64,000 bases of DNA, from positions 82,407-146,406 of IMG/VR virus record IMGVR_UViG_3300012269_000002; one strand, given 5' to 3'. The stretch comes from a virus. Lineage: Duplodnaviria > Heunggongvirae > Uroviricota > Caudoviricetes. Of the stretch, positions 3,713-37,478 are shown piece after piece. Position numbers and translations under genes: made by a program. Positions within the stretch are counted from its first letter, which is position 1; each line of letters starts with the position of its first letter. A model generated the notes under the pieces. That model worked only from the letters and a program-made list of their open reading frames with translations, made no database searches and had not been told where the DNA came from.

Positions 3713-4735
3713 ATGGGAAAAGTATATAAATTTTCAAAAGTGGAGTTAAATGATATTGTTAAAATGTATGTTAATGAATTTCAATCAACAAATAATATCG
3801 CTAAAAAATATAATGTTGATACTGGTGTTATAATAAAAAGATTAAGGGATAATAAAATTAAAATTCCTAAGCGCTCTGCATATTCCAAAAAATATTGGTT
3901 AGAAAGGGGAATGGATGAAGATTTAATTGACCCTCATATAAAAACACTTAGACCCGTTAATCCCGAATACTGGTTTAAGTTAGGTTATTCAGAAAGTGAG
4001 GCTATTTTACAAATAGAAGGTCAAAAATTGGTTTCAGAAAGGGGCTGTATAGCTAGGTATGGAGAAATTGAGGGGAAGCGTATTTGGAGTGGAAGGGAAA
4101 TAAAAAGGAGTGAAAATAGTAAAAAGGGTAGTGCTAATTTACAATATTGGTTAAATAAAGGTTATTCTGAGGATGAAGCTAAAATAAAGCGTAGTGAAAG
4201 ACAATCTACATTCTCAAAAGAAATTTGTGTTAAAAAATATGGTGAGGTTGAAGGTTTAAAAATTTTCACCGAAAGACAGAATAAGTGGTCTAAATCTTTA
4301 ACCAATAATGGAAATCTTAAAATAGGGTATTCTAAGATATCACAAGATTTGTTTTATAAATTATTAAAACAATATAAAATAGAAGATAGGGATAAAATTA
4401 ATTTTGCCACACATAATAAAGAGTTTAAATTAAATAAATCTGAATCAGAAGGTGGGATTTGGATGTATGATTTTACTGATATCAAAAATAAAAAGATAAT
4501 CGAATATAATGGTGACCAATATCATGGAAACCCTAAAAAATATTTAGCAGAAGATTATCCACACCCTTTTAGAAAAACAATCACCGCACAAGAAATGTGG
4601 GATAAAGATAAACGTAAGTTAGATATTGCCAATAAAGAAGGTTTTGATGTGTTAGTTATTTGGGATTCAGAATATCGTTGGGGGAATAAAGAAAAAGTAA
4701 TAGATAAATGTAAAAAATTTTTAAAATATGGTTAA
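3713..4735 (+). CDS. Free-standing homing endonuclease (helix-turn-helix/NUMOD-like repeats plus Vsr/DUF559-like nuclease) located between the split intein halves
   Basis: Repeated YW..GYSE.EA helix motifs. C-terminal IIEYNGDQYHGNPKKY ... VLVIWDSEY matches the Vsr-like nuclease core shared with ORF 1356. It lies in a different frame from both flanking Rad50 pieces. Confidence 0.5.
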   Translation: MGKVYKFSKVELNDIVKMYVNEFQSTNNIAKKYNVDTGVIIKRLRDNKIKIPKRSAYSKKYWLERGMDEDLIDPHIKTLRPVNPEYWFKLGYSESEAILQIEGQKLVSERGCIARYGEIEGKRIWSGREIKRSENSKKGSANLQYWLNKGYSEDEAKIKRSERQSTFSKEICVKKYGEVEGLKIFTERQNKWSKSLTNNGNLKIGYSKISQDLFYKLLKQYKIEDRDKINFATHNKEFKLNKSESEGGIWMYDFTDIKNKKIIEYNGDQYHGNPKKYLAEDYPHPFRKTITAQEMWDKDKRKLDIANKEGFDVLVIWDSEYRWGNKEKVIDKCKKFLKYG

Positions 4736-6968
4736 AGAAATTGAGATAGGTAAATTAAATGAAATTTACAAAAAATATGGTGATTTAGGTTTTGAGGTGG
4801 ACACACCATATGGCTTTCATGATATTACATGGTGTGGTATAACCGAAGAAAATGCCGAGGTATATAGATGTGAACTAGAAAATGGTTTGTATGTTGAAGG
4901 TGCTGATTATCATAGATTAAAAAAAGAAGATGGGGAATTTGAAGTTTTAAAGAATATTGAAATCGGAACACCTATTCAAGTTAGGAATGGTATTTCAAAT
5001 GTTAAGTCAATTAAATTATTAAATGAGCGAGACACTTTATATGATATTCAAGTAGATAAAGTTCATCAGTATTATTCAAATGATATAGTATCACATAACA
5101 CGACCTTAACAATTGATGCAATTAAATTCTTATTTTTTGGTACAACAACCAAAACCGATAAGAATGAACAGGTATTCAATCAATTTAGTGAAAACAATGA
5201 CCTTATTCTTAGGGCCATGATTCAAATTGAAGGTGATGACGAGATAATTATAGAGCGTTTTTTAAAGAGGAAGGCTAAACGTAAGGGTGGTTGGACCATA
5301 GAGAATAAATTAAACTACTACATAATCTTACCAGATGGTGAAGAAGAGTTAATGAACGATGAAGATGCCACTAAAACGACAAATTTAATAAAAGAAACCG
5401 TTGGTACCGAAAGTGATTTTGATTTAGTGGTCCTAGCCACATCTAGAAATCTTGACACCCTTGTTGATTCTACATCTGGAGAAAGTGGTAAACTATTAAC
5501 TAGATTTATAGGTCTAGAGGTGATATCGTTGAAAGAAACCGCTGCCCGTAAGATGTATTCAACATTTTCAAAAACTATGAAGTCAAACATTTATGATGTT
5601 GAAACTTTAGACGAAGAAATTAGTGAGCATCAAGGTAAAATAGACGAGTTAAATAGTCAAAGAAAAATTTTAGATATTGAGCTAACTGACCAAAAGGAAA
5701 TTCAAGTTAAATTAAACGAAGAAAAAATTACCCTTATAAGTTCAAAGGAAAAAATAGATGCAAAAATATTAACACTAAACCCATCTAAATTGAATCAAGA
5801 GATTAGCACCATAACTCAAACGGGTGTTGGGTATAAAAATGAGATAGCTGAGTTAAAGGTCAAAATAAAAAAAATCGGTGATATAAATTTTGATGAGGAT
5901 AGAGATTTTGAACTAAGCAAAGAAAAAACATCCGTAAGTAGTGATATAGCTGTTAAAGAAGCTGAAATAATTAGATTAGACAAAGTAATCGATGATTTAA
6001 TAGCTGGTGGTATATGTCAGGCTTGTAACAGAGCCTTAGAGGACGTTGATAACACCGAACACATAAACACTCATAAATTACAAATAGGTGCATTAGGTGA
6101 AGCCTTAATGTCGTTAAGGGTTAAATTATCATCTATCAATATTGAAATTGAGAAATTAAGTGTTGCAAAGGTTAAAATTAATGAAAAAAATAAATTAGAA
6201 TTAAGAAAGGATAGGGTAGAAGTTGAAATTGGGTCATTAAGAAATTCACTTAAGACTAAAAATGACGACTTGAATAAGTACAATGAAAATGTAAGTGGTA
6301 TTGATAAAAATGCTAAACTTGATAGTGAAATAAGTATAGTAGACACTAAACTTATTGTTTGTGAACGTGAAAAAGAAAGCATCAATAATAAAATACAGTC
6401 AAATGGTATCCTAAAGGAAAGTAACAATAAGGATATTACCTTAAAAACGGATTTAATAAAAACCATAAATAAAGAGTTGGAGGTTGATAAAGTCTTTAGG
6501 GTGTATATTGATATGGTCGGTAAAAAGGGTATTAGTAAATTAGTACTTAGGTCGGTACTACCTATAATAAATAGTGAGATACAAAGACTACTTGACGATA
6601 TCACCGATTTTGATGTTGAAGTTTTTGTTGACGATAAGAATGAAGTTAGATATTTATTAATAAAGGATGGGGTTGAGAAACCATTAAAATCTGGTAGTGG
6701 CTTTGAATTGACTGCCGCAAGTATTGCGTTAAGATGTGTACTGGGTAAAATGTCAAATCTACCAAAACCTAACTTCATTGCATTTGATGAGGTCCTAGGT
6801 AGGGTTGCACCAGAGAATATTTCAGCCATGAGACCATTATTCGAAAGAATAACCGATATGTTCGATATAGTCTTCTTTATAACTCAGAATGATTTAGTTA
6901 AGGATTGGGCGAATCAAATTGTGACGGTAATAAAGGATAATAATATCTCTAAAATAAAAACTTTATAA
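4728..6968 (+). CDS. Split-intein C piece (about 124 aa, ends ...LYDIQVDKVHQYYSNDIVSHN) fused to the Rad50/SbcC-like ATPase body (coiled coil, CxxC zinc hook, signature and Walker B motifs)
   Basis: Intein blocks F/G are present (YDIxV...H.Y.SNDIVSHN followed by T). The extein has AIKFLFFG after the P-loop, a long coiled coil with CQAC at its centre, a C-terminal SGSGFELTAASIALR (signature-like) and FIAFDEV (Walker B/D-loop). Confidence 0.6.
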   Translation: MVKEIEIGKLNEIYKKYGDLGFEVDTPYGFHDITWCGITEENAEVYRCELENGLYVEGADYHRLKKEDGEFEVLKNIEIGTPIQVRNGISNVKSIKLLNERDTLYDIQVDKVHQYYSNDIVSHNTTLTIDAIKFLFFGTTTKTDKNEQVFNQFSENNDLILRAMIQIEGDDEIIIERFLKRKAKRKGGWTIENKLNYYIILPDGEEELMNDEDATKTTNLIKETVGTESDFDLVVLATSRNLDTLVDSTSGESGKLLTRFIGLEVISLKETAARKMYSTFSKTMKSNIYDVETLDEEISEHQGKIDELNSQRKILDIELTDQKEIQVKLNEEKITLISSKEKIDAKILTLNPSKLNQEISTITQTGVGYKNEIAELKVKIKKIGDINFDEDRDFELSKEKTSVSSDIAVKEAEIIRLDKVIDDLIAGGICQACNRALEDVDNTEHINTHKLQIGALGEALMSLRVKLSSINIEIEKLSVAKVKINEKNKLELRKDRVEVEIGSLRNSLKTKNDDLNKYNENVSGIDKNAKLDSEISIVDTKLIVCEREKESINNKIQSNGILKESNNKDITLKTDLIKTINKELEVDKVFRVYIDMVGKKGISKLVLRSVLPIINSEIQRLLDDITDFDVEVFVDDKNEVRYLLIKDGVEKPLKSGSGFELTAASIALRCVLGKMSNLPKPNFIAFDEVLGRVAPENISAMRPLFERITDMFDIVFFITQNDLVKDWANQIVTVIKDNNISKIKTL

Positions 6969-7759: not shown

Positions 7760-8590
7760 ATGAGTAAAAAATATATTAATTTTAATGACGATGAAAGTAT
7801 TTCAAAATACTTTAAAGACGTAAAGAAAACAAAATTACTAACTCCAGAAGAAGAAGTTGAGTTAGCGATACAAATAAAAAATGGTAGTCAAGTGGCAATT
7901 GACAAGTTGGTGAGTGCTAACTTAAAATTTGTTGTATCCGTTGCAAAAGAATACCAAGGACAAGGGTTACAATTAAGTGATTTAATTAGTGAAGGTAATC
8001 TTGGTATGGTGAAAGCGGCAAAACGCTATGACCATACTAGAGGGTTTCGTTTTATATCTTATGCTGTTTGGTGGATTAGACAATCCATAATGCAAAGTTT
8101 AAACGATAACTCCAGAACCATTAGATATCCATCTAATGTTATAAACAAAATATCATTAACAAAGAAAAAATTTGAGAAATTTGAGATTGACAATTGCAGA
8201 CAGGCCGATTTCACCGATTTTTATGATGACTCATTGGTTGATTTTAAATCCCTGGCCAAATGCTCATCATTTAATGAGATAATCAACGATTCTGGTAGTG
8301 AGATATCTGAATTGTTGATTGACAATGATTATGATTATGACGATATATTCAATGAGGGTGATGGTATCATAAAAAACGAACTAGTTAATATGTTAAGTGA
8401 ACTTTCCGACAGAGAGAGGGAAATAATTAATTGTTATTTTGGTATCGATAAGGATTATGATAGTATGACATTAGAAGTTATAGGTGAAAAATATAATCTA
8501 ACCAAGGAAAGAATACGCCAGATAAAGGAGAAGGCTCTAAGAAAACTTAGACATAATGCCGATAATTTATTCGATATAATAAATAAGTAA
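7760..8590 (+). CDS. RNA polymerase sigma-70 family sigma factor (phage-encoded)
   Basis: Region 2 has EGNLGMVKAAKRYD and YAVWWIRQSIMQS. Region 4 has LTKERIRQIKEKALRKLRH (HTH). Confidence 0.85.
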   Translation: MSKKYINFNDDESISKYFKDVKKTKLLTPEEEVELAIQIKNGSQVAIDKLVSANLKFVVSVAKEYQGQGLQLSDLISEGNLGMVKAAKRYDHTRGFRFISYAVWWIRQSIMQSLNDNSRTIRYPSNVINKISLTKKKFEKFEIDNCRQADFTDFYDDSLVDFKSLAKCSSFNEIINDSGSEISELLIDNDYDYDDIFNEGDGIIKNELVNMLSELSDREREIINCYFGIDKDYDSMTLEVIGEKYNLTKERIRQIKEKALRKLRHNADNLFDIINK

Positions 8591-20482: not shown

Positions 20483-20490
20483 TATATTTG
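20483..20490 (+). promoter_or_regulatory. Bacteroidetes-type -7 promoter element TAnnTTTG (tatatttg) upstream of gene 20523
   Basis: The motif TATATTTG recurs 20-40 nt upstream of many starts in this window. It matches the Bacteroidetes sigma-A -7 consensus. Confidence 0.45.
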
Positions 20491-24025: not shown

Positions 24026-24445
24026 ATGGCTAAGTACGAAAATCCTTTTGAGGATACATTGGAAATTTTTGAAGGAGTTATTAAAAAAGCAGAACTTAAT
24101 GCTCACGTAACTATTAAAGTCTTAACTGATAACAGCCTTAAAAAAGTAGTGGCTAAAGCGGTTAGAGCAAATGATTTAGTTAAGTATGAGACTAAAAATG
24201 ATGTATATATCTTCGTAAATGAAAATATATTTGAACAATTAACGGAAGAGCAACAAGTTATGGCTGCCGATGAAGTTATTGCTGGAATCCATTATGATAT
24301 GGATAAAGATAAGTTAATTATCACACAAGAGGATATTAAAACATTTTCTGGGGTTCTATCAAAGTATGGGTATGATAACTACGAAGTTCTTCAAGAAAGT
24401 ATTAGAACTCTTTTCAGTGTTGAAAAGAACGGAGCTGAGGTATAA
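24026..24445 (+). CDS. hypothetical protein
   Basis: ORF. Confidence 0.3.
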   Translation: MAKYENPFEDTLEIFEGVIKKAELNAHVTIKVLTDNSLKKVVAKAVRANDLVKYETKNDVYIFVNENIFEQLTEEQQVMAADEVIAGIHYDMDKDKLIITQEDIKTFSGVLSKYGYDNYEVLQESIRTLFSVEKNGAEV

Positions 24446-24831: not shown

Positions 24832-25515
24832 GTGGGTTACATATATATGTTAATAGATAAGAGAAATGGTAAAAAATATGTTGGAAAACATAATGATAAA
24901 AAAAAAGATTATTGGTCATCTGGATTAGTCCCTAATAGAATAGCTAAAGTTCATGGTGCAATTATATTTGATAGGGTTATACTTGAAGATGATATAAATG
25001 ATAATAATTTAAATGATAAGGAAATTTATTATATTAAATTAGAAAACTCGTTTAATGATGGTTATAATTCGACTAAAGGTGGCGAGGGCGGTAATCATTG
25101 GGTTTATGATAAAACAGATGAAGAATTAAAAGAAATTAGATTAAAACAGTCTAAAAAATTAAAAGGTAGGGTCTTTAGTAAAGAAACAAAGAAAAAAATG
25201 AGCGACTCTGCCAAGGCTAAGTTTTTTACTAAGGAGCATAGGGAAAATATAGGTAAAGGTACTAAAAATAGAGGTGGGTTTCCACATAGTAATGAGACTA
25301 AAGAAAAAATAGCTAAATCTATGAGTGGTCGTAAGTCGCCAGAACATTCTAAATTTATGGTTGAGAACAATCCAAAAGCTCAGAAAGTTTCTATAAATGG
25401 TGTTGAATATGATACCATAAAAGAAGCTACTAAAAAACTTAACATAAATAGAAGTACTGTAAAATATAGATTAAATAACCATAAATTTAAAAAATGGTTT
25501 AAAATTAAAAAATAA
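24832..25515 (+). CDS. GIY-YIG homing endonuclease (N-terminal GIY-YIG, NUMOD3-like repeats, C-terminal HTH)
   Basis: GYIYMLIDKRNGKKYVGK is the GIY-x10-YIG spacing. Repeats SKETKKKMSDSAKAKF and SNETKEKIAKSMSGRK are NUMOD3-like. The C-terminus has a NINRSTVKYRLNN HTH. Confidence 0.7.
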   Translation: MGYIYMLIDKRNGKKYVGKHNDKKKDYWSSGLVPNRIAKVHGAIIFDRVILEDDINDNNLNDKEIYYIKLENSFNDGYNSTKGGEGGNHWVYDKTDEELKEIRLKQSKKLKGRVFSKETKKKMSDSAKAKFFTKEHRENIGKGTKNRGGFPHSNETKEKIAKSMSGRKSPEHSKFMVENNPKAQKVSINGVEYDTIKEATKKLNINRSTVKYRLNNHKFKKWFKIKK

Positions 25516-25519
25516 AAAT

Positions 25520-26233
25520 ATGGATTATTACGGAGAATTTAAAAAATATGCTATAGGGCATATGGGTATAAGTGGAATGCAACTCCAATCGTGGGAAAAT
25601 TTACAAAAGACATTATATAGTAACGTACAAACCATTGGGGTACCAATGGGTAGTATGACACCATATATATTAGAAGAGAGGGAACTACGTGTTACACAGC
25701 TTGATATTTTCTCCAGAATGATGATGGATAGAATTTTATGGGTCGCTGGTGTTGTTAACGATAATATGAGTAATGTTGTAGCCGCACAATTAATGTTCTT
25801 GGATAACCTAGAAACAAACGATATAACGATGCATGTCGATTCTCCAGGTGGAAGCGTAAAGGCTGGTTTAACCATGGTAGATGTTATGAATTATGTTTCA
25901 TCCGATATAGCAACAATCAATACTGGTATGGCAGCATCAATGGGTTCAATCCTATTGGGTAATGGGACCAAGGGTAAGAGATTTAGCCTTAAACATAGTA
26001 AAGTGATGTTACACCAAGTTTCTGGTGGTGCGGAAGGCCATGTTGCGGATATGAGAATATCCCTAGAGCAAGCTGATAAGTATAATGAAATATTATTTGA
26101 AATGTTAGCTAGTTTCTGCGACAAAACAAAAGAAGAAGTTCTTATCGATTGTAATAGAGATAAATGGTTGACATCAGAAGAAGCTTTAAATTATGGTATC
26201 ATCGATGGTATTATTATAAATAAAGCTGCCTAA
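25520..26233 (+). CDS. clpP: ATP-dependent Clp protease proteolytic subunit (ClpP family)
   Basis: ITMHVDSPGGSV, GMAASMGS (catalytic Ser) and the MLHQVSGG His region are conserved ClpP motifs. Confidence 0.8.
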   Translation: MDYYGEFKKYAIGHMGISGMQLQSWENLQKTLYSNVQTIGVPMGSMTPYILEERELRVTQLDIFSRMMMDRILWVAGVVNDNMSNVVAAQLMFLDNLETNDITMHVDSPGGSVKAGLTMVDVMNYVSSDIATINTGMAASMGSILLGNGTKGKRFSLKHSKVMLHQVSGGAEGHVADMRISLEQADKYNEILFEMLASFCDKTKEEVLIDCNRDKWLTSEEALNYGIIDGIIINKAA

Positions 26234-26597: not shown

Positions 26598-26605
26598 TAT
26601 ATTTG
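26598..26605 (+). promoter_or_regulatory. TAnnTTTG promoter element upstream of the tmRNA-like gene
   Basis: tatatttg lies about 20 nt before the predicted tmRNA 5' end. Confidence 0.4.
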
Positions 26606-26626: not shown

Positions 26627-26987
26627 GGGCGTTTTACGGAATTGATTATGGATATTCGTAATTAGTAAGGAAGTGGAGTTAGATTGGAAGCTCCTAAAAT
26701 CACTATCAAACACTTTTTAAATGGCAACGAGTTTGACATTGACAAAAATTTCCTAGATACCGCCACCTTGGGTGTTGGTATGGGAGAGGTAGCATTAGCC
26801 TAATTTAATGTTGATGGTGATAAATCACCAAATAATAGTAATCTATTAATCATGGTAATCTATGAGTGGGACCAAAACCACTATAAAAGTAAGGAAGAAT
26901 TTCGGATAGTTTGATAAATTATGACCTAAACTTCTAGAAATCTTTTGAAGAGTTTGTAAGACATGGGTTCGACTCCCATAACGTCCA
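26627..26987 (+). ncRNA. ssrA: tmRNA (ssrA)-like gene, about 361 nt
   Basis: The 5' gggcgtt pairs with the 3' aacgtcc (7 bp, one G-U) next to a tRNA-like T-arm (atggg ttcgact cccat) and discriminator A. The 5' region GGGCGUUUUACGGAAUUGAUUAUGGAUAUUCG resembles the canonical tmRNA start GGGGCUGAUUCUGGAUUCGAC. An internal frame ends ...GMGEVALA then TAA (26801-26803). A terminator follows at 26994-27020. Confidence 0.5.
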
Positions 26988-26993
26988 CTTTTA

Positions 26994-27020
26994 AAAACCC
27001 ACTTTTAGTGGGTTTTTTTA
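26994..27020 (+). terminator. rho-independent terminator after the tmRNA-like gene
   Basis: aaaaccca ctttt agtgggtttt hairpin plus T-run. Confidence 0.65.
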
Positions 27021-27554: not shown

Positions 27555-28013
27555 ATGTCAGAAAATAGTAAATTAGTAGTAGAAAACAGTAAAATTAAAG
27601 TTCATTATACAGGTAAATTTGTTGATGGGCAAGTATTTTATTCTTCAAAAGCCGTTGAAGGATATAACTTTGAAACTAAAGAACCACTTGAAGTTGTTCT
27701 TGGTGAGGGAAAATTAATCCCAGGGTTTGAAAAAGCTCTTCAAGGAATGTCCGAAGGTGAGGTTAAAACAGTTTCAATAACTTGTGACGAGGCTTACGGA
27801 CAACCAAGAGAAGAACTTATACAAGAAGTAGAAAAACAATACCTACCAGAAACAGTTGCCGCTGGTCAAGTATTACACACTCAAAATGCTCAGGGTCAAC
27901 AAATGACCGTTGTTGTAGTTGAAGTTAAAGAAAATTCAGCATTATTGGATGCTAACCATCCACTATCTGGAAAAGATTTGGTTTTTGATTTGGAATTAGT
28001 TAGTGTTGAGTAA
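27555..28013 (+). CDS. slyD: FKBP-type peptidyl-prolyl cis-trans isomerase (SlyD-like, with IF/chaperone insert)
   Basis: VKVHYTGKFVDGQVFYSS and GEGKLIPGFEKALQGMSEGE are FKBP motifs. The inserted flap and C-terminal domain are typical of SlyD. Confidence 0.7.
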   Translation: MSENSKLVVENSKIKVHYTGKFVDGQVFYSSKAVEGYNFETKEPLEVVLGEGKLIPGFEKALQGMSEGEVKTVSITCDEAYGQPREELIQEVEKQYLPETVAAGQVLHTQNAQGQQMTVVVVEVKENSALLDANHPLSGKDLVFDLELVSVE

Positions 28014-36365: not shown

Positions 36366-37478
36366 ATGAGAGTTAAATTTAACTTACAGGTTCCAAAAGA
36401 CATTATAAAAATCAAGGATATATTTGTAAGCAATGGTTATAAACTATTTGTTGTCGGTGGTGCCGTTCGTGACTCATTACTTAAAAAGTCAATAAAAGAT
36501 TGGGATTTAGCTACCGATGCTAAACCAGATATAGTCGAGAATATGATGAAGACCGCTGGTCTTAGAACATTAGGGACTGGAAAAAGCTTTGGGGTCATAA
36601 ATGTATTCACCGATTCAGATGAATATGAAATCGCTACATTTAGGTCTGATTTAGGTTCGGATGGCCGCAGACCAAATTCTGTTGAATTCACGAATATTGA
36701 TACCGATGTTATGCGTAGGGATTTAACAATCAATGCATTATTTTATGATATCGAAACTGGTGAGGTTGTTGACCTTGTTGGCGGTATTGATGACTTGAAG
36801 AACCGAGTTGTTAGGACCGTTGGTTCAGCCAATGATAGATTCGGTGAAGATAGACTTAGAATACTTAGAGCAATTAGGTTCGCTGGTAGATTTAATTCAG
36901 ATTTGGATGCTGATGCTGAAAAATCACTCGCAAATGATGCCAGCTTAGAGGGAATATCATCTGAGAGGATTAGAGACGAGTTTTTAAAGGGTATTAAGAC
37001 CGCTAAATCGATTAAATACTTCCTAGGGCTACTAAATCAATACAATCTATTAGATTGGATATTTAAGGATATACAGAATGTTGATACTGACTTTCAAGAG
37101 GAAAGGGACCCAACTGTTCTATTGGCATACATGTTAAGAAATAATGACCCCAAACAATTGAACGGTAAGTTGAATAAATTGACGTACTCCATCAATGAGA
37201 TTAGGGGAATTGTTTTCTTAGTAAATCTAACAATGTTAAATGTTAACAATGTATATGAACTTAAGAAGATGCAGAATAATTCTGGTGTTAATGACGAACA
37301 GATTAGAAAATTCTCAAACTTAGTTGGTTTAAACACTGAATTATTTGAGTCATTTATAAAATTCGAATTATCAATTGGTGGTGCCGAGGTTCAAAAGTTA
37401 GGTATTGAAGCTGGTCCAGAAATGGGTAGAATGATTAAAAAATTAGAATTACAGAATTTTTTAAAGTATTTGAATTAA
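36366..37478 (+). CDS. cca: tRNA nucleotidyltransferase (CCA-adding enzyme), polymerase beta superfamily
   Basis: Head-domain motifs are FVVGGAVRDSLL, DWDLAT and RRDLTINALFYD. No tRNA gene in the window encodes CCA except tRNA-Ser(TGA). Confidence 0.75.
   Translation: MRVKFNLQVPKDIIKIKDIFVSNGYKLFVVGGAVRDSLLKKSIKDWDLATDAKPDIVENMMKTAGLRTLGTGKSFGVINVFTDSDEYEIATFRSDLGSDGRRPNSVEFTNIDTDVMRRDLTINALFYDIETGEVVDLVGGIDDLKNRVVRTVGSANDRFGEDRLRILRAIRFAGRFNSDLDADAEKSLANDASLEGISSERIRDEFLKGIKTAKSIKYFLGLLNQYNLLDWIFKDIQNVDTDFQEERDPTVLLAYMLRNNDPKQLNGKLNKLTYSINEIRGIVFLVNLTMLNVNNVYELKKMQNNSGVNDEQIRKFSNLVGLNTELFESFIKFELSIGGAEVQKLGIEAGPEMGRMIKKLELQNFLKYLN

Follow-up and report, generated by a model that had tools for sequence, protein, structure and literature searches.

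A One-Piece tmRNA with a Long, Family-Conserved Tag Is Encoded Next to ClpP in an Uncultured Phage

Transfer-messenger RNA (tmRNA, encoded by ssrA) has been catalogued in phages yet hardly studied there. Of 18,146 phage genomes, 402 (~2.3%) carry a tmRNA (PMC9004378). One is present in phage G and in mycobacteriophages of the Bxz1 group (PMC4131195), huge phages have it as well (PMC7162821), and a single tmRNA each was reported, without analysis, for the flavobacterial phages Calle and Panino. The tmRNAs of the Bxz1 group, Bacillus phage G, Melnitz and the pelagimyophages (two-piece) and the huge phages are complete ssrA genes, and they reside in lytic or large genomes together with tRNA arrays and translation genes. 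Here, we describe a tmRNA gene on a 64,000-nucleotide stretch of a tailed virus (Caudoviricetes; IMG/VR record IMGVR_UViG_3300012269_000002, positions 82,407 to 146,406), which is referred to as the window. The gene belongs to a large, previously undescribed family, although phage tmRNAs as such are already known. Compared with the earlier phage tmRNAs, the family is one-piece, Bacteroidota-derived and equipped with a much longer tag that is conserved among its members. No description of the family, its expanded tag or the DnaJ-ClpP-tmRNA gene block was found in the literature. Taken as a whole, the observations are probably explained by a functional, independently transcribed one-piece tmRNA that descended from a Bacteroidota-type tmRNA and is carried by an uncultured phage. 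The family offers a testable handle on the purpose of phage tmRNAs.

The chromosomal tmRNAs of Bacteroidota, with the tags GENNYALAA or GETNYALAA, have the same overall architecture, and the Gly resume codon (GGC) is common to them and to the window. The phage RNAs are shorter (~355-379 nt compared with ~397-400 nt), whereas their tags comprise 24-26 codons instead of 9. The phage tags have gained the motifs (V/I)(S/D)(E/K)NFL and GE(V/L)A(V/L/F/A)A and end in A-x-A rather than L-A-A. Moreover, most members of the phage family use Asp (GAC) as the resume codon, and their gene adjoins that of ClpP in phage genomes. Phage G likewise has a non-LAA tag end, AKLNITNNELQVA (...LQVA), and encodes ClpP as well as ClpX (PMC12484599). 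In phage G, however, ClpP is unlinked to the tmRNA, whereas it directly adjoins the tmRNA here, where neither ClpX nor SmpB was found nearby. With 27 residues, the ssrA tag of Mycoplasma and Mesoplasma is also unusually long; hydrophobic and aromatic residues abound in it, and it is terminated by A-F-A. This tag provides a precedent for a tag evolving along with a change of protease (PMC8403727). That unrelated lineage lacks ClpXP and uses Lon, whereas the linked protease here is ClpP, and the tags are dissimilar in sequence.

ARAGORN called a tmRNA at positions 26627-26988 of the window with the tag GNEFDIDKNFLDTATLGVGMGEVALA followed by a stop. The Rfam tmRNA family RF00023 matched positions 26627-26990 with 58.0 bits (gathering score 47; E = 4e-20) over model positions 1-374 of 374, so that the match to tmRNA is real and far exceeds chance. 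Both of these checks had been proposed in a first-pass annotation of the sequence, and both were positive. The 7-bp acceptor, the T-arm, the discriminator A and the total length named there could all be read directly in the sequence. One assignment had to be revised. The stretch GAUUAUGGAUAUUCG (26644-26658) had been taken for the conserved 5' motif of tmRNAs, but the covariance-model alignment placed it in helix 2a. As evident from the same alignment, the counterpart of 'cuGGaUUCGAC' is ACGGAAUUGAU at roughly 26636-26646, a few bases upstream of GAUUAUGGAUAUUCG. The T-loop was located in GGTTCGACTCC. Two features of alanine identity, the G3:U70 wobble pair and the discriminator A26987, were present.

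Homologues were collected in steps. A search of IMG/VR with the neighboring ClpP yielded six diverged loci, all of which matched RF00023 downstream of ClpP (E <= 7e-12), four of them above the gathering score. A DNA pattern for the tag end then gave 55 viral loci, which were checked with a profile made from the first six tmRNAs; all 55 held a full-length homologue. These two steps resulted in 44 distinct tmRNA sequences, and resampling with an internal tag motif added 14 loci. More than 50 distinct homologues were thus present in uncultured viral contigs, which reach up to 362 kb in IMG/VR. When the tag-end pattern was applied to 185,579 species genomes, 13 hits were obtained, including one family member (L076). 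A cellular origin was rejected, as the other 12 hits were chance matches and L076 represented the same phage module. L076 (CAUYTX010000233.1) is a 20.6-kb contig of 30% GC that was deposited under 'Gammaproteobacteria bacterium CCP3-SC1AL1' and has a ClpP of 62% identity adjoining the tmRNA. Most likely, a phage contig was assembled together with, or binned into, a bacterial genome in this case; otherwise, L076 might hint at a host outside the Bacteroidota. The family is essentially virus-specific. In 50,697 deposited phage records, blastn and megablast searches with the tmRNA region, the surrounding 20 kb and a typical family member found no relative.

Covariation was analyzed in an alignment of 43 homologues, to which all counts below refer unless stated otherwise. 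Controls consisted of pairing partners slid by 1-3 columns and of 500 shuffles. Standard pairs filled 94.9% of the cells compared with 37-52% in the slid controls, 32 of the 45 pairs had changed on both sides in a compensatory manner, and none of the 500 shuffles attained the observed values. Every main helix showed covariation: in the tRNA-like domain the acceptor and the T-arm, in the long helix 2 that joins this domain to the mRNA-like domain helices 2a and 2d, and in addition stem 1 at the position of pseudoknot 1 (PK1), helix 5 and the first hairpin following the tag. The third acceptor pair was G:U in 42 homologues, and five of the seven acceptor pairs were compensatory. The T-arm was 100% paired with compensatory changes in all five pairs. 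Helix 2a (96.3% of cells paired) had six of seven pairs changed on both sides, and the respective values were 99.2% and five of six for helix 2d, and 97.7% and four of six for PK1 stem 1. All five pairs of the first post-tag hairpin were compensatory. The window departed from the rest of the family in two helices, 2d and PK1 stem 1, with each change compensated. In helix 2d, it differed from the consensus GCAUGU/ACAUGU of the family by compensated double changes. The motif GGnAUUGA, examined as the analogue of the D-loop, was conserved in the family alignment.

The tag frame was analyzed in the same way. The first-pass annotation had read a frame end GEVALA-UAA, which was seen, and had considered that the tag start could not be fixed. 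ARAGORN (coding part at positions 97-177), the covariance-model alignment and the comparative data all placed the resume codon GGC at 26723. The A at position -4 from the resume codon was invariant (43/43), and so was the first G of that codon. This A corresponds to A86 of Escherichia coli tmRNA, the main determinant of frame choice (PMC2481249). Mean column entropy was 0.57, 0.42 and 0.90 for the first, second and third codon positions, i.e. third positions varied about twice as much as second positions. The tag frame, which is start-less, is maintained by selection at the codon level. Tag length was likewise constant, with 25 residues in 35 sequences, 26 in seven and 24 in one.

The consensus of the family tag reads (D/G)N(D/T/S)(F/L)(I/V)(V/I)(S/D)(E/K)NFL(D/N)(E/T)A.....GE(V/L)A(V/L)A, with ENFL and GE(V/L)A(V/L/F/A)A as conserved motifs. 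The endings are non-polar and Ala-rich and do not show the usual L-A-A. An ending in VALA, unlike the usual ALAA, had been noticed before and was correct for the window; within the family, VALA is a minority ending, and ...AVA is the commonest. Codons of the tag C terminus formed part of the first search pattern, and the endings were rechecked in two samples independent of that pattern. All six ClpP-anchored loci ended in GE.A.A, and the 14 internal-motif loci ended in GELAVA, GEVAVA, GEVAFA or GEVAAA. The tag carries conserved internal and C-terminal motifs, and we therefore deduced that the peptide itself is under selection and that ribosome release is not the sole function. In one homologue (L007:4165-4284; JGI 3300012031 contig Ga0136561_1000017), the region corresponding to window positions ~26684-26803 was annotated as a coding sequence of 39 amino acids inside the tmRNA, ending at the tag stop. 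This is a misannotation of the tmRNA tag region by a gene caller in a public assembly.

Helix 5 is formed in part by the last tag codons. Its alignment pairs 176:191 and 177:190 covaried (A-U 21, U-A 17, G-C 2). The 3' strand of the helix compensated a Val-to-Leu codon change of the window, and it also covaried with the third base of the antepenultimate Ala codon. Synonymous changes in the last Ala codon were compensated in the helix as well. The features of the tmRNA gene and of its surroundings are compiled in Table 1.

Table 1. Features of the tmRNA gene and of neighboring genes (window coordinates)
Feature	Position	Strand	Remarks
One-piece tmRNA (ssrA) gene	26627..26987	+	361 nt to discriminator A; CCA unencoded; ARAGORN, RF00023, covariation
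Acceptor stem	GGGCGUU 26627-26633 : AACGUCC 26980-26986	+	7 bp; third pair G3:U70
T-arm	26963-26979	+	stem 26963-26967 / 26975-26979, loop UUCGACU
Helix 2a (5' strand)	26647..26653 : 26952-26958	+	RNAalifold and pair counts
Helix 2d (5' strand)	GGAAGU 26669..26674 : ACUUCU 26930-26935	+	
Hairpin at PK1 position	26675..26694	+	stem 26675-26680 / 26689-26694
Invariant A at -4 from resume codon	26719	+	counterpart of E. coli A86, frame-setting nucleotide
Tag frame	26723..26803	+	resume codon GGC, 26 codons GNEFDIDKNFLDTATLGVGMGEVALA, stop UAA 26801-26803
Helix 5	26792..26811	+	last tag codons GCAUUA : UAAUGU, stop codon in loop
Row of 4-5 hairpins at the PK2-PK4 position	26816..26926	+	first hairpin 26816-26829
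Promoter-like box TATATTTG	26598..26605	+	Bacteroidota -7 type (TAnnTTTG); 22 nt upstream of mature 5' end
Intrinsic terminator	26993..27019	+	11-bp hairpin (26993-27017), then U-tract
Phage metallopeptidase (PF18894)	24026..24445	+	Pfam E 2e-07; homologous cluster in 28 related loci
Phage ClpP protease	25520..26233	+	~400 nt upstream of tmRNA, same strand
FKBP-type (SlyD-like) peptidyl-prolyl isomerase	27555..28013	+	Pfam FKBP_C E 5e-19
CCA-adding enzyme (tRNA nucleotidyltransferase)	36366..37478	+	PHROG 2244, E 1e-53
PTH2	45095-45490		
NUDIX	45490-45891		
tRNA-binding-domain protein	45894-46250		
R2K ATP-grasp	46254-47033		
Rnl1-type RNA ligase	48680-49810		

The origin of the family was approached by comparison with chromosomal tmRNAs. 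A metagenome scan for tmRNAs encoding GE(T/N)NYALAA followed by a stop revealed 120 loci, 106 of which were called by ARAGORN as tmRNAs of ~397-400 nt. GETNYALAA is the published native SsrA tag of Bacteroides (bioRxiv 10.1101/2025.03.18.644028). The profile of the phage family matched 109 of the 120 loci in the 5' domain (model positions 1-100) and the 3' domain (~290-362) with ~30-35 bits each. E. coli ssrA gave a weak match of 13.7 bits at the 3' end. Host and phage RNAs had near-identical blocks, namely GUAAGCAUGUAGUGC...GCACUUnAAUCU, which covers helix 2d and PK1 stem 1, and the 3'-strand block CUAAACAUGUAGAAAGC. The stretch preceding the resume codon reads ACACUUUUUAAAC|GGC in the host type and ACACUUUUUAAAU|GGC in the window. 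Thus, from the profile matches and the common blocks, it is deduced that the phage family descends from a chromosomal tmRNA of the Bacteroidota type. The tag template lengthened from 9 codons to 24-26 and has stayed constant since, and the 3' pseudoknot region appears to have shrunk. In over 50 diverged phage copies, the tag has been retained at roughly three times the length of that in the ancestral host type.

The gene is flanked by candidate transcription signals, both of which had been pointed out in the first-pass annotation and were recovered. The TAnnTTTG-type box upstream is TATATTTG, an octamer enriched in the window (25 observed compared with 11.6 +/- 3.8 expected). Of the 25 copies, 23 are on the plus strand, and 18 of these 23 are intergenic. 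The generic TAnnTTTG pattern was not enriched in the window (114 observed, 106 expected). The distribution of the octamer suggests that TATATTTG acts as a phage promoter of the Bacteroidota -7 type. The same box occurred in the close sub-clade relatives L018, L056 and L060 at -30 to -32 and in L043 at -37, and most other relatives had CATATTTATA at the equivalent position. Downstream of the tmRNA, the terminator hairpin folded with -12.9 kcal/mol (z -3.2; 1 of 200 shuffles folded as well) and was followed by a U-tract. It went undetected in a simple consensus scan and was revealed by direct folding. Together, the signals point to a tmRNA gene that is transcribed independently.

Copies of TATATTTG are found, for example, at 20483, 23745, 27519, 29973, 31036, 36341, 45079 and 58530, and many lie 9-42 nt ahead of the start of an open reading frame (ORF). 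In the majority of the related loci, for example L004, L010 and L047, the CATATTTATA box is situated 15-35 nt ahead of the tmRNA. It precedes a leader, GTTCTTTAAnTTAT, that hardly varies and directly borders the mature 5' end, and a terminator hairpin is often located upstream of the box. The window and its sub-clade have TATATTTG instead of CATATTTATA, and the leader of the window differs from GTTCTTTAAnTTAT. The CATATTTATA-GTTCTTTAAnTTAT unit may be a tmRNA-specific promoter or processing signal.

The window has a phage-like gene content. It contains 31% G+C, and 86 of its 96 ORFs are on one strand. Genes of DNA metabolism encode an SbcC-like nuclease, an ATP-dependent DNA ligase, a dNMP kinase and two C5 methyltransferases; homing endonucleases of the GIY-YIG and HNH types are also present. 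RNA- and translation-related genes comprise the CCA-adding enzyme, PTH2, an Rnl1-type RNA ligase and an array of 12-13 tRNA genes. The DNA ligase shares 53% identity with its counterpart in the Cellulophaga phages phi4:1 and phi17:2. Hardly any ORFs are preceded by a Shine-Dalgarno motif (1 of 58 compared with 5.3 expected), and the leaders are A-rich. The host is most likely a Flavobacteriia-like member of the Bacteroidota. This assignment follows from four indirect lines, i.e. the near-absence of Shine-Dalgarno motifs, the TAnnTTTG-type box, the ligase resembling that of flavobacterial phages and the Bacteroidota-type ancestry of the tmRNA. The phage also encodes a factor of the sigma-70 family, comprising regions 1.2, 2 and 4, at 7760-8590.

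The reading as a phage tmRNA was therefore supported by ARAGORN, RF00023, covariation in 43 homologues and a phage-like genome. Several observations weigh against the reading set out at the beginning. The RF00023 score clears its threshold modestly, and the relatives L005 (46.1 bits) and L006 (38.5 bits) remain below it. The 3' CCA is not encoded; the bases following A26987 are CTT, and CCA is encoded in just 5 of 42 relatives. The CCA-adding enzyme of the phage could supply it, although this link to maturation is inferred. The minimum free energy fold of positions 26803-26932 consists of successive hairpins, so that PK2-PK4 appear reduced to hairpins. Neither SmpB nor ClpX was found in the 64-kb window by a Pfam sweep of ORFs of at least ~100 amino acids and by tblastn with E. 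coli queries, a weak test for diverged proteins, or in ~865 kb of related loci by the same weak tblastn test. The evidence for the host is indirect, and the SbcC-like protein and a protein of 533 amino acids have no close relatives among cultured phages.

A further point of this kind concerns PK1. The duplex energy of its stem 2 averaged -3.3 kcal/mol compared with -2.5 kcal/mol for shuffled sequence, and 4 of 43 sequences reached p < 0.05. In the window, the energy was -2.4 kcal/mol (p 0.72), no better than that of shuffles. Stem 2 comprises at best 3 bp (GAU:AUY), and its variation is one-sided only. Of the registers AGAUU/AAUCU, UAGA/UCUA and GAU/AUY, GAU:AUY alone fits the G59-to-A variants, and its energy is again no better than that of shuffled sequence; the claim of a demonstrable PK1 pseudoknot was therefore rejected. 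A covarying hairpin occupies the place of PK1, and the second stem is unsupported. The first-pass annotation had made the tmRNA call depend on a foldable PK1. This dependence is invalid, because tmRNA remains active when PK1 is exchanged for unrelated sequence (PMC2481249), and the missing stem 2 is thus no refutation of the call.

The first-pass annotation had also pointed to nearby translation genes. The genes for PTH2, the CCA-adding enzyme and the tRNAs (39.5-44.3 kb) do exist, but they are 10-18 kb away. They matter less than the gene for ClpP, the most telling neighbor, which had not been mentioned. The ClpP sequence matched Pfam CLP_protease (PF00574; E 8e-55) over profile positions 6-180 of 182. 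It scored 231 bits with NCBIfam NF011091, which is below the equivalog cut-off of 361, as opposed to 69 bits with a model for head-maturation proteases. The catalytic motifs GMAASMG, MLHQ and NRD, contributing Ser, His and Asp, were present by inspection. Judged by its sequence, the protein is a genuine ClpP with intact catalytic motifs. Linkage was evaluated in the 55 tag-pattern loci, which had been obtained independently of ClpP; eight of them had less than 750 nt of upstream sequence and were left out. In 46 of the 47 informative loci, ClpP was encoded on the same strand 85-1975 nt upstream of the tmRNA. It was also found upstream in 13 of the 14 internal-motif loci. ClpP identity across linked loci was 52-73%.

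Clustering of neighboring ORFs revealed a conserved block in the order DnaJ (26 loci), metallopeptidase (28 loci), ClpP and tmRNA. The window has no DnaJ, and a gene for a GIY-YIG homing endonuclease (24832-25515) is inserted between those for the metallopeptidase and ClpP. The FKBP-type isomerase is encoded 80-196 nt downstream of the tmRNA in the sub-clade relatives L018, L043, L048, L056 and L060. The DnaJ proteins of the relatives are full-length type I proteins with J domain, zinc finger and C-terminal domain (TIGR02349, 329 bits); in L001, for example, DnaJ is encoded at 4473-5501 and the metallopeptidase at 5554-5982. Near-universal adjacency to a catalytically intact ClpP, often together with DnaJ, points to a phage-controlled proteostasis module.

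In four loci (L004:9429-9911 and three others), a protein of 160 amino acids is encoded ~1.9-2.5 kb downstream of the tmRNA; it does not occur in the window. It has an RF-1 domain with the catalytic GGQ motif and a release-factor C-terminal domain. It matched PF00472 (E 8e-24) and PHROG 19918 at positions 179-336 of 355 only, and it lacks the codon-recognition half. This domain composition suggests that the protein may be a stop-codon-independent peptidyl-tRNA hydrolase, i.e. a second ribosome-rescue factor. Orf128, an SLOG protein and clusters of 97-138 amino acids in the relatives were considered as SmpB-, SspB- or ClpS-like proteins and were rejected, since no such matches were obtained in Pfam, NCBIfam or PHROGs.

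The steps by which the tmRNA would act are modeled on the established trans-translation pathway. The transcript would be processed at the 5' end, receive CCA from the CCA-adding enzyme of the host or the phage and then be charged with Ala by the alanyl-tRNA synthetase of the host. SmpB and EF-Tu, both assumed to be provided by the host, would deliver the charged RNA to ribosomes stalled on broken mRNAs during infection. The stalled ribosomes would be released, and Ala plus GNEFDIDKNFLDTATLGVGMGEVALA would be added to the nascent chain. The tag, with its ENFL motif and its A-hydrophobic-A C terminus, might serve as a degron that sends the chains to the phage ClpP working with a Clp unfoldase of the host. 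In this way, the module would free stalled ribosomes and put the recycling of their products under the control of the phage. Synteny makes it plausible that the tag is a degron routing tagged chains to the co-located ClpP, and we propose this tentatively. Should it be true, it would show that the phage rewires host quality control.

The strongest competing explanation keeps functional ribosome rescue and denies that the long tag is a degron directed to ClpP, which would merely reside in the same auxiliary early-gene block. The tag could then be neutral, allow escape from ClpXP/SspB of the host, or direct chains elsewhere, for example to Lon or to the neighboring DnaJ chaperone. The linkage could indeed reflect a common block of early or auxiliary genes rather than functional coupling. 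The most divergent member of the family, L036, has no ClpP within 6.2 kb upstream of its tmRNA, and other phages encode a ClpP with no tmRNA next to it. LR745206 (635 kb), the uncultured phage with the best deposited ClpP match, is an example of the latter and was rejected as a lead to further tmRNAs, as no tmRNA was present within 5 kb. Neither ClpX nor an adaptor was found nearby in the window and related loci (weak tblastn). Moreover, most family members lack the Ala-Ala ending typical of the most potent ClpXP degrons of E. coli, and the 27-residue ...AFA tag of Mycoplasma, an ending that recurs in some family members, is a degron for Lon and not for ClpXP (PMC8403727). Against this stand the strong conservation of tag sequence and length, which indicates that the peptide itself matters, and the adjoining, same-strand ClpP in ~97% of the informative loci across deep divergence. 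The C terminus, furthermore, is Ala-hydrophobic-Ala and non-polar like that of degradation tags, and an ...LVA C terminus is recognized by ClpX as a strong degron in E. coli (PMC10862746). On balance, a rescue system with a tag unrelated to ClpP is rather unlikely.

The degron reading can be taken one step further. The long, phage-specific tag might have been rebuilt as a degron that is read by the adjoining phage ClpP and is orthogonal to the GENNYALAA/ClpXP route of the host. In such a private tag-and-destroy circuit, DnaJ, the metallopeptidase, FKBP and, in some genomes, the GGQ release-factor-like protein would act as helpers. The circuit would clear ribosomes that had stalled because of host mRNA decay or anti-phage nucleases, and the products would be recycled under phage control. 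We regard this extension as unlikely and its realization in full as doubtful. If it held, it would explain why phages retain tmRNA genes and would provide a natural orthogonal degron-protease pair for Bacteroidota that could be used in synthetic biology. Should the degron readings fail, a well-supported new family of phage tmRNAs remains.

A decoy or inhibitor RNA that titrates host SmpB or occupies stalled ribosomes, as proposed for the molecule of mycobacteriophage DS6A that has the tRNA-like domain only, was also considered. RNA consisting of the tRNA-like domain only strongly inhibits tmRNA, perhaps via titration of SmpB (PMC4131195), and the unsupported PK1 stem 2, the reduced PK2-PK4 region and the failure to find a phage SmpB would suit such a role. 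An mRNA-like domain would be needless for a decoy, yet the resume context (43/43), the codon pattern, the tag length and helix 5 with the stop codon are all conserved, which makes this explanation very improbable. The idea of a passenger without selected phage function, i.e. a recently captured host ssrA or an integration remnant, draws on the frequent integration of phages into ssrA with carriage of fragments (PMC9004378, PMC11590407) and on the host-derived ancestry of the family, but it is hardly credible and is effectively refuted by the covariation and the phage-specific tag: the gene is complete rather than a 3' fragment, no integrase was recognized in the window, more than 50 diverged copies are kept with compensatory substitutions, 1 of 13 cellular-genome hits is a member, and the tag is radically unlike the host type and conserved within phages.

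Several other features of the window were recorded. PTH2, the NUDIX protein, the tRNA-binding-domain protein, the R2K ATP-grasp protein and the Rnl1-type RNA ligase form a cluster of RNA- and translation-maintenance genes at 45095-49810, which has the look of a repair kit against tRNA- or mRNA-targeting nucleases. Within the tRNA array, ARAGORN listed four genes (39613-39684, 41138-41218, 43555-43647 and 43715-43789) as 'tRNA-???' and read out anticodons of two letters, which suggests unusual anticodon loops or introns. Rfam scored these genes as tRNAs. A tRNA match of 58 nt at 41792-41849 was obtained with Rfam and was not called by ARAGORN. The tRNA-Ser(tga) at 40501-40591 scored 47.4 with the tRNA-Sec model (threshold 47), probably as an effect of its long variable arm. 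Two adjoining ORFs at 55212-57326 encode C5 cytosine DNA methyltransferases, the second of which matches the family in three stretches. Near them, at 58794-59243, lies a free-standing ORF of 149 amino acids with a Hint/intein-splicing domain.

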